Source: Deltaproteobacteria bacterium
GTDB lineage: Bacteria; SAR324; XYD2-FULL-50-16
NCBI GenBank assembly: GCA_018657625.1
Contig: JABHWU010000113.1
Coordinates: 10,101-42,100 of the forward strand
Direction: 5' to 3'
Length of the DNA: 32,000 nucleotides
This document shows positions 16,617 through 18,034 of the stretch, in pieces. Made by a program: the position numbers and the translations under genes. The stretch's first letter is position 1. Every line of letters begins with the position of its first letter. The notes beneath the pieces are model-generated. The model did no database searches, was not told the DNA's origin, and saw only the letters and a list, made by a program, of their open reading frames with translations.

Positions 16617-17747
16617 ATGTCTGATATACCAACTACTTTTATTCCCTTAAGTGATTTAACAGGAAGTAAGGACGAAGTAAGACCGGATTGGGTCATTGGT
16701 TCAGTCAGTTCTGGCATTGGTCCAATCCCGCAGATATCATGTGACTGGAATCAATCCGATAAAGTCGGTCAAATAAAAGCGCGAATCAATAACACTTTTC
16801 GGATGAAATATGCCATTCAAGCTGGATTATATGCCGTAGGAAATCCTGATGGGGATTCACCTGTTTTGCTTTCAGCCAACTATAAATTAAGCTTCGACAT
16901 TCTAAGGCGTGAATTAAAGACGCTAAATGTATGGATCATCGTTTTAGATACCAAAGGAATTAACGTCTGGTGTGCCGCTGGTAAAGGGACTTTCGGAACT
17001 GACGAAATCATCAGACAAATCAGTCATCTAAAACTTGAGCGAGTGGTAAAACATCGTAAAGTGATTTCACCGCAATTGGGAGCCCCTGGAATAAAAGCGC
17101 ATGTTGTCAAAAAAATGACGGGGTTTAACATTAAATATGGTCCTGTCTTGGCCAAAGATATTCAAAAATATCTTCAAGACGGTTTAAAGGCGACCAAGGA
17201 AATGCGTCGGATCTCATTTAAAATTATTGATCGAATGATTTTAACACCAATGGAAATTTCCCTGGTGCTTAAACAATCATGGAAATACGGTTTAGGTATA
17301 TTAATATTTTTTGGTATTATGCCGACCGGGATTCTTTTTAAAAATGCTTTTGTGGATGGGTTACCGTTTATTCTTTTACTTTTTGTAGCGATTTTAACGG
17401 GAGCTTTTATCACCCCTGCCCTGCTGCCCTGGATCCCTTTTCGGGCTTTTTTTAGGAAGGGTTTTTTAATAGGATTGTTACCTGTGATTCTGCTTCATTA
17501 TCTTTCTTATAAATATGGTGGCCTTTTCAATGATCCATTTTTGTTGGCATCAGCTTATTTGTTGGTTCCGACACTAAGTTCTTATCTGGCTTTTAACTTT
17601 ACCGGTTGTACAACTTATACCAATCCGGCCGGTGTTAACAAAGAATTGAAGTCGGCATTTATTGTTTATGCGATTACTATTATAGTCAGTATTATACTAC
17701 TGGTTATTTACAAATTACTTATTTGGGGAGTGCTATGGAATACTTGA
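16617..17747 (+). CDS. hgcA: HgcA, corrinoid-dependent mercury methylation protein
   Basis: 376 aa. Cap-helix motif NVWCAAGK (nt 16962-16985) in context VLDTKGINVWCAAGKGTFGTDE, CFeSP-like corrinoid-binding domain, about five C-terminal TM segments; next to hgcB. Confidence 0.95.
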   Translation: MSDIPTTFIPLSDLTGSKDEVRPDWVIGSVSSGIGPIPQISCDWNQSDKVGQIKARINNTFRMKYAIQAGLYAVGNPDGDSPVLLSANYKLSFDILRRELKTLNVWIIVLDTKGINVWCAAGKGTFGTDEIIRQISHLKLERVVKHRKVISPQLGAPGIKAHVVKKMTGFNIKYGPVLAKDIQKYLQDGLKATKEMRRISFKIIDRMILTPMEISLVLKQSWKYGLGILIFFGIMPTGILFKNAFVDGLPFILLLFVAILTGAFITPALLPWIPFRAFFRKGFLIGLLPVILLHYLSYKYGGLFNDPFLLASAYLLVPTLSSYLAFNFTGCTTYTNPAGVNKELKSAFIVYAITIIVSIILLVIYKLLIWGVLWNT

Positions 17748-18034
17748 AAAATGTTGTGACATTGCAGTTTTCAGAAAGCAAATGTAATGGTTGTCAAAGA
17801 TGCATAGAAGTTTGTCCGCATGGTGTTTTTCAAATGGTAGGGAAAAAAGCAGCCATAACAGACAAAGACCTCTGTATGGAATGTGGATCCTGTCAAAATA
17901 ACTGTGAACAGGAAGCTATCCAGGTTGAATCTGGTGTTGGATGTGCTGAAGCCATTATTAGAGGTTTGTTAACTGGTAAAGAACCAAGCTGTGGTTGTGA
18001 TGGTGAGTCCGAAAGTAGTAGTAGCTGTTGTTAG
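17735..18034 (+). CDS. hgcB: HgcB, 2[4Fe-4S] ferredoxin partner of HgcA
   Basis: Preferred ATG at 17735 (RBS GGGGAG at 17725-17730), 99 aa. CNGCQRCIEVCPHGVF, CMECGSCQNNC, VGCAEAII and a C-terminal CC; overlaps the end of hgcA by 13 nt. Confidence 0.95.
   Translation: MEYLKNVVTLQFSESKCNGCQRCIEVCPHGVFQMVGKKAAITDKDLCMECGSCQNNCEQEAIQVESGVGCAEAIIRGLLTGKEPSCGCDGESESSSSCC

Follow-up and report, generated by a model that had tools for sequence, protein, structure and literature searches.

Do two adjacent genes on a 32,000-nucleotide stretch of a Deltaproteobacteria bacterium genome (assembly GCA_018657625.1, contig JABHWU010000113.1, positions 10,101 to 42,100; hereafter the window) encode HgcA and HgcB, the corrinoid protein and the ferredoxin of microbial mercury methylation, or do they belong to one of the other systems that are built from homologous domains? 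As methylmercury, mercury is neurotoxic and bioaccumulates, and hgcAB pairs are now routine in metagenomes. The known pair is that of Pseudodesulfovibrio mercurii (Desulfovibrio desulfuricans) ND132 and Geobacter sulfurreducens PCA, reportedly described by Parks et al. in 2013. An earlier note on the window, made from the DNA letters, had placed an hgcAB pair at 16617-18034, and both open reading frames were indeed found there as separate, adjacent and intact genes:

16617..17747, forward strand: hgcA, coding for the corrinoid protein, 376 amino acids (aa) with a TGA stop; 385.9 bits against HgcA_corrinoid (NF040863, cutoff 275)
17735..18034, forward strand: hgcB, the ferredoxin partner with two [4Fe-4S] clusters, 99 aa; 119.3 bits against HgcB_ferredoxin (NF040864, cutoff 99)

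On the evidence set out below, it is highly probable that the two genes are orthologs of hgcA and hgcB and that they encode a membrane-associated, corrinoid-dependent mercury methyltransferase system. Family membership was judged with the curated equivalog hidden Markov models (HMMs) of NCBIfam, each against its own cutoff. HgcA and HgcB both passed their own equivalog models, with E-values (1.4e-115 and 4.6e-35, respectively) that exclude a chance match. By comparison, HgcA failed the model for the fused HgcAB-like proteins (NF043039; 195 bits, cutoff 285, E 2.3e-57) as well as that for the gamma subunit of CFeSP (corrinoid iron-sulfur protein) or acetyl-CoA decarbonylase-synthase (NF003195; 73.5 bits, cutoff 306, E 1.5e-20). 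HgcB gave a partial match of 52 bits to the fused model. The fused proteins, of the Pyrococcus furiosus type, contain homologous corrinoid, transmembrane and ferredoxin modules in a single polypeptide, unlike the two genes of the window, and the tested organisms with this fused form do not methylate mercury (PMC10087281).

The low score against the CFeSP model bears on an explanation in which HgcA would be the CFeSP gamma (large) subunit of acetyl-CoA synthase, accompanied by a generic ferredoxin, as part of the Wood-Ljungdahl pathway. In NCBI the identical protein goes by 'acetyl-CoA synthase subunit gamma', and Pfam sees CdhD alone in HgcA (PF03599 subset; aa 67–182, 38.6 bits vs 24.8). Likewise, a sequence search of the PDB returned CFeSP large subunits as the sole solved-structure matches (E about 1e-7, HgcA aa 62–186). 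The large subunit (AcsC/CdhE; PDB 2h9a, 2ycl, 4djd) does carry a homologous corrinoid-binding domain, but only about 125 residues (aa 62–188) align, corresponding to the CFeSP C-terminal domain, and in local alignment the corrinoid domain is 24% identical to CFeSP as against 50–92% to the HgcAs of many lineages. The N-terminal 4Fe-4S domain and the TIM barrel of CFeSP are absent from HgcA, which has a five-helix membrane domain in their place, and the cap position held by a cysteine in HgcA (Cys119) is a threonine in CFeSP. No acsD, acsB or carbon monoxide dehydrogenase genes were found nearby. A neighbour-joining tree placed CFeSP on a long outgroup branch apart from the HgcAs, so that the phylogenetic comparison with CFeSP paralogs and the HMM comparison, both proposed in the earlier note, came out in favour of its assignment. 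The identity as CFeSP is refuted by domain architecture and HMM scores and is given practically no chance here.

The assignment to HgcA itself draws on three features of the protein:

16797..17186, forward strand: corrinoid domain, supported by Pfam (CdhD), the PDB matches to CFeSP and Foldseek; ratio of nonsynonymous to synonymous substitution rates (dN/dS) 0.093
16962..16985, forward strand: cap-helix motif NVWCAAGK, with the Cys119 codon TGT at 16971–16973; predicted cobalt-thiolate axial ligand (after PMC7305189 and PMC11588087)
17223..17723, forward strand: transmembrane domain of five helices, supported by hydropathy, AlphaFold2 secondary structure and many invariant residues; dN/dS 0.112

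The NVWCAAGK motif reported in the earlier note lies at aa 116–123. The consensus protocol (PMC10087281) counts it among its six 'high-stringency' motifs, and the sequence matches the cap-helix pattern N(V/I)WC(A/S)(A/G/S)GK with its strictly conserved cysteine. In an alignment of 49 diverse HgcA homologs, made without the sequences of the related loci that are compared below (the L series), the Cys119 column is invariant, and all 58 of the 58 invariant columns, spread over both domains, are kept in the HgcA of the window. About five C-terminal transmembrane helices had also been proposed in the earlier note, and on these Kyte-Doolittle hydropathy and the AlphaFold2 model agree: hydrophobic segments were located at about aa 223–243, 248–270, 280–297, 306–326 and 346–370, and long helices at aa 203–233, 241–268, 278–300, 307–329 and 337–369. 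The model, built on the 49-homolog alignment, has a mean predicted local distance difference test score (pLDDT) of 84.9 and a predicted template modelling score (pTM) of 0.74, and its N-terminal domain is of mixed alpha/beta structure. The top Foldseek match, which is also the best structural match overall, was the published integrative HgcAB model of ND132 (9a0b_A, E = 5e-20), with an HgcA identity of about 34% in the Foldseek alignment. CFeSP chains came next, matching the corrinoid domain only (2ycl and 2h9a, root-mean-square deviation about 3.2 Å over about 128 columns).

HgcB shows a corresponding set of features:

17783..17818, forward strand: first cluster motif, CNGCQRCIEVCP (aa 17–28)
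17873..17908, forward strand: second cluster motif, CMECGSCQNNCE (aa 47–58), a clade-specific form with S for the usual A and CE rather than CP
17942..17944, forward strand: Cys70, within GVGCAEAII; counterpart of ND132 Cys73, which is essential there
18026..18031, forward strand: C-terminal Cys98-Cys99 pair, its role taken from PMC7305189

The HgcB motifs listed in the earlier note, namely CNGCQRCIEVCPHGVF, CMECGSCQNNC and a terminal CC, are all present. Together the two cluster motifs, each a CxxCxxCxxxC(P) [4Fe-4S] motif, hold all eight cluster cysteines; the residue that follows the last cysteine of the second motif varies in homologs and may be P, A, K or E. Cys70, about 12 residues beyond the second motif, was kept in all 11 of the aligned HgcBs. 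The flexible, cysteine-rich tail of the protein reads …SCGCDGESESSSSCC, with SSSSCC as its last residues, and also contains Cys86 and Cys88.

Compared with the ND132 and PCA proteins, the pair in the window has the same two-gene order, the same corrinoid domain with five transmembrane helices, a dicluster ferredoxin with a cysteine tail, NVWCAAGK with its axial cysteine, the equivalent of Cys73 and the terminal CC. Among the differences, its HgcA is without the PCUGP (Cys-Sec) N-terminal extension, its HgcB has CMECGS…CE where the known pair has CMECGA…CP, and no ArsR-like regulator lies upstream. In ND132, methylation depends on Cys93 and the membrane domain in HgcA and on Cys73 plus one or both of Cys94 and Cys95 in HgcB (PMC7305189), and the required residues have equivalents here in Cys119 of HgcA and in Cys70 and Cys98/99 of HgcB. 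With purified or heterologously expressed HgcAB, S-adenosylmethionine was found to give methyl-cob(III)alamin with cobalt-thiolate ligation, after which mercury was methylated (PMC11588087); this biochemistry of corrinoid Cys-on ligation and S-adenosylmethionine-dependent Hg(II) methylation comes from ND132 only (PMC11588087).

If the ND132 work carries over to the window, the [4Fe-4S] clusters of HgcB would reduce the HgcA-bound corrinoid to Co(I), which would then be methylated by S-adenosylmethionine, giving methyl-Co(III) whose axial thiolate ligand would be Cys119. The methyl group would pass to Hg(II), probably presented by the C-terminal cysteines of HgcB together with Cys70, and CH3Hg+ would be released. 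All tested organisms with a non-fused hgcA produce methylmercury (PMC10087281), and because of this rule it is reasonable to predict that the host is a methylator. The description of the organism as a predicted methylmercury producer in the earlier note is therefore fair as a prediction from gene content, and the host, an uncultured low-GC anaerobe, is a credible candidate producer.

Selection on the two genes was examined with two relatives of the locus, L013 (88% HgcA identity) and L014 (68%). Against L013 (dS 0.47, not saturated), dN/dS was 0.126 for hgcA and 0.082 for hgcB, and the values listed above for the corrinoid and membrane domains come from the same comparison. With ratios of about 0.1, hgcA and hgcB are kept by purifying selection. 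Such selection implies a benefit to the cell, and mercury methylation is not known to give one, which favours an explanation in which the two proteins are true HgcAB orthologs with another native function, such as reductive dehalogenation of halomethanes or some other corrinoid-dependent methyl transfer, and in which mercury is methylated incidentally. According to a 2026 preprint, heterologously expressed HgcAB dechlorinates CCl4 besides methylating mercury, and halomethanes are proposed there as the evolutionary substrate; furthermore, the 32-kb window is without mer, ars or further metal-resistance genes. The preprint is not peer-reviewed, however, and the window shows nothing that points to halomethane metabolism, such as dehalogenase accessory genes. 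This explanation is also compatible with an orthologous hgcAB pair, since the organism would still methylate mercury. A different native function is thus considered possible, although on the unlikely side.

Several observations weigh against the assignment to a mercury methyltransferase system. The CMECGS of HgcB does not match the literal C(M/I)ECGA regular expression of the high-stringency motif set (PMC10087281). The nearest HgcA beyond a small clade is at most 59% identical, among the matches listed. The NVWCAAGK stretch forms no regular helix in the cofactor-free AlphaFold2 model, where its pLDDT is 66–75. HgcA has no N-terminal CC/CU motif, its aa 1–24 being without cysteine. Near hgcAB no regulator was found, ArsR-like or otherwise, the small flanking open reading frames being without a Pfam match, and promoter-like sites occur at chance level (19 vs 17 ± 4 expected). 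McDaniel et al. noted an ArsR-like regulator beside hgcAB in 112 genomes.

The CMECGS form is shared by the window, L013 and L014, and alanine is found at this position in eight more distant HgcBs. Because the exchange does not affect a cluster ligand, the mismatch is better regarded as a limit of the regular expression than of family membership. HgcBs of the clade formed by the window, L013 and L014 would escape a screen that applied C(M/I)ECGA literally.

As for the N-terminus of HgcA, Haft & Gwadz proposed a PCUGP (Cys-Sec) or CC extension for most HgcAs, though it is not an accepted defining feature of the family. In the window an upstream extension or read-through is excluded because a TAA stands at 16605, 12 nucleotides before the hgcA ATG. 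The motif is therefore truly absent. Short, conserved, cysteine-less N-termini of the type 'MQTLKFVKK…' were nevertheless found in about 45 of the 120 closest homologs, and about half of these 120 lack the PCUGP/CC motif, which accordingly cannot define the family. The absence was considered as a distinguishing anomaly and rejected as one; being common among homologs, it is no mark against function. The HgcA family is heterogeneous at its N-terminal end. In the locus of a Malonomonas metagenome-assembled genome (MAG; L007, 5195-5551), an in-frame TGA gives …PPCUGPP…, which independently supports the selenoprotein extension of Haft & Gwadz, and an N-terminal CC or CCC is present in the HgcAs of L001, L002 and L006.

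The clade-specific changes might also be read as signs of a divergent, non-methylating HgcA-like variant whose activity has been lost or altered. Besides CMECGS in HgcB and the cysteine-less N-terminus, HgcA evolves faster than its neighbours: among the proteins of the syntenic block it has diverged furthest from its L014 counterpart, with 68% identity as against 79–92% for ten neighbouring proteins, and with a dN of 0.218 as against 0.056–0.154. Yet the residues whose importance mutagenesis has shown (HgcA Cys93, HgcB Cys73 and Cys94/95) all have counterparts here, the HMM score of HgcA is far above the equivalog cutoff, and dN/dS is about 0.1 in the corrinoid and membrane domains alike. The alanine-to-serine exchange lies away from the cluster ligands, and cysteine-less N-termini are, as noted, common. 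A variant that no longer methylates mercury is therefore judged very unlikely, and the orthologous hgcAB pair is retained as the preferred assignment.

The arrangement of the two genes was also considered. Called mechanically, the hgcB reading frame opens at a TTG at 17723, giving a 103-aa form. The ATG at 17735 is the better start and almost certainly the true one, because a Shine-Dalgarno sequence, GGGGAG, lies at 17725–17730, 5 nucleotides before it, and because the resulting 99-aa protein is the form found in NCBI and in public gene calls, while the 103-aa form does not occur in a collection of 15 billion proteins. With this start hgcA and hgcB overlap by 13 nucleotides, which suggests that they are translationally coupled. 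At all of the related loci that were compared (L001–L007 and L013–L017), hgcB lies directly 3' of hgcA. No terminator was detected 3' of hgcB, and the RNA fold downstream of the gene has a z of −0.75. Recent horizontal transfer was considered as an origin of the pair and rejected: hgcAB has a GC content of 38.4% and the window one of 35.6%, the synteny is shared with relatives, and there is no sign of an island.

On the 5' side of hgcA, the following features were recognized:

15775..16512, forward strand: AlaX-like protein with a tRNA-editing domain, 104 nucleotides 5' of hgcA; 100 bits against AlaXM (cutoff 300)
15382..15580, reverse strand: cobalamin riboswitch (RF00174, 71 bits, gathering score 31.5), heading a divergent corrinoid operon
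9411..15163, reverse strand: the riboswitch-headed operon, with genes for a CbiK-like chelatase, for an ABC-2 ATPase and permease, for BtuC-, BtuD- and BtuF-like transporter components, and for CbiL

The AlaX-like protein contains the Pfam domains tRNA-synt_2c and tRNA_SAD together with HxxxH and CxxxH zinc motifs, and its gene has a dN/dS of 0.14. It adjoins hgcA in the window, L013 and L014 only. The CbiK-like chelatase of the operon has a signal-peptide-like N-terminus. The whole arrangement, consisting of the AlaX-like gene with hgcAB, the divergent operon and its riboswitch, is kept in L013 and L014. It is missing in L016 (58% HgcA identity) and also in L001–L007, the loci from GTDB; there hgcA and hgcB alone stay paired. 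An operon that supplies corrinoid might plausibly be linked to HgcA, which is a corrinoid protein. It is doubtful, however, that hgcAB, the AlaX-like gene and the riboswitch-controlled uptake and chelatase operon form a functional module in this lineage; since the arrangement is conserved over short evolutionary distances only, inherited synteny explains it as easily as function does. Were the module real, cofactor supply or an AlaX-like step would be coupled to HgcAB, which may hint at the source of the HgcA corrinoid or at a native role of the pair.

On the 3' side of hgcB, a 151-aa C-terminal remnant of a 264-aa ATP-binding cassette (ABC) ATPase lies at 18221-18676 on the reverse strand, with a scar that extends to about 18780. 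Compared with L013 (14736–16850), about 2.1 kb have been deleted here, and with them the remaining part of the ATPase as well as a BPD_transp_2 permease and an ABC_sub_bind protein. The same deletion scar is present in all contigs of the window's species (L008–L012), and L013 and L014 likewise differ from each other by rearrangement in the region 3' of hgcB. In L001, from a Chitinivibrionales MAG, a match to the catalytic domain of group II introns (RF00029, 56 bits) was found at 11448-11523 on the forward strand, about 700 nucleotides after hgcB.

Elsewhere in the window, a methyl-accepting chemotaxis protein whose C-terminal part is a hemerythrin domain is encoded at 20565-22856 (forward strand), desulfoferrodoxin at 24908-25246 (reverse strand) and a second methyl-accepting chemotaxis protein at 3345-4715 (reverse strand). 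These three fit an oxygen-sensing, oxygen-avoiding anaerobe. Three successive genes at 26224-30545 (reverse strand) encode a 391-aa coiled-coil protein with many weak coiled-coil Pfam matches, a 496-aa protein for which Pfam gave no match, and a protein of 558 aa that includes an adenylate/guanylate cyclase domain.

Both proteins of the pair are already deposited in public databases. HgcA is identical to MBT4289071.1/MBT4527222.1 at NCBI, which carry the CFeSP gamma name quoted above, and HgcB is identical to MBT4289070.1/MBT4527223.1, named '4Fe-4S binding protein'; the JGI names for the same proteins are 'hypothetical protein' and PreA-like dehydrogenase subunit. The NCBI entries derive from MAGs labelled 'Deltaproteobacteria bacterium', GCA_018651875.1 being one of them. 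These public names are outdated or incorrect as to function, and those given by NCBI predate the HgcA and HgcB models. At least 20 contigs from ENA, JGI, Logan and NCBI assemblies carry an identical hgcA. Among the matches listed, the relatives of HgcA are 88, 72 and 68% identical, followed by those at 59% or less, and a single search gave more than 7,900 homologs. A scan of 185,579 GTDB species representatives returned no HgcA closer than 51%. Homologs of MutY, beyond a few close relatives, are likewise at most 51% identical and come from mixed phyla.

The locus is one more member of a large and well-characterised family, and it confirms rather than extends what is known of it. To our knowledge hgcAB is the sole known genetic marker of microbial methylmercury production, so each new lineage that bears the pair refines the maps of where methylation is possible. 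The value of the present case lies in a corrected annotation, in a motif variant flagged for strict screens and in a poorly represented lineage added to the putative methylators: a recurrent, uncultured, low-GC anaerobe with an hgcA clade that has no close relative among the GTDB representatives scanned.

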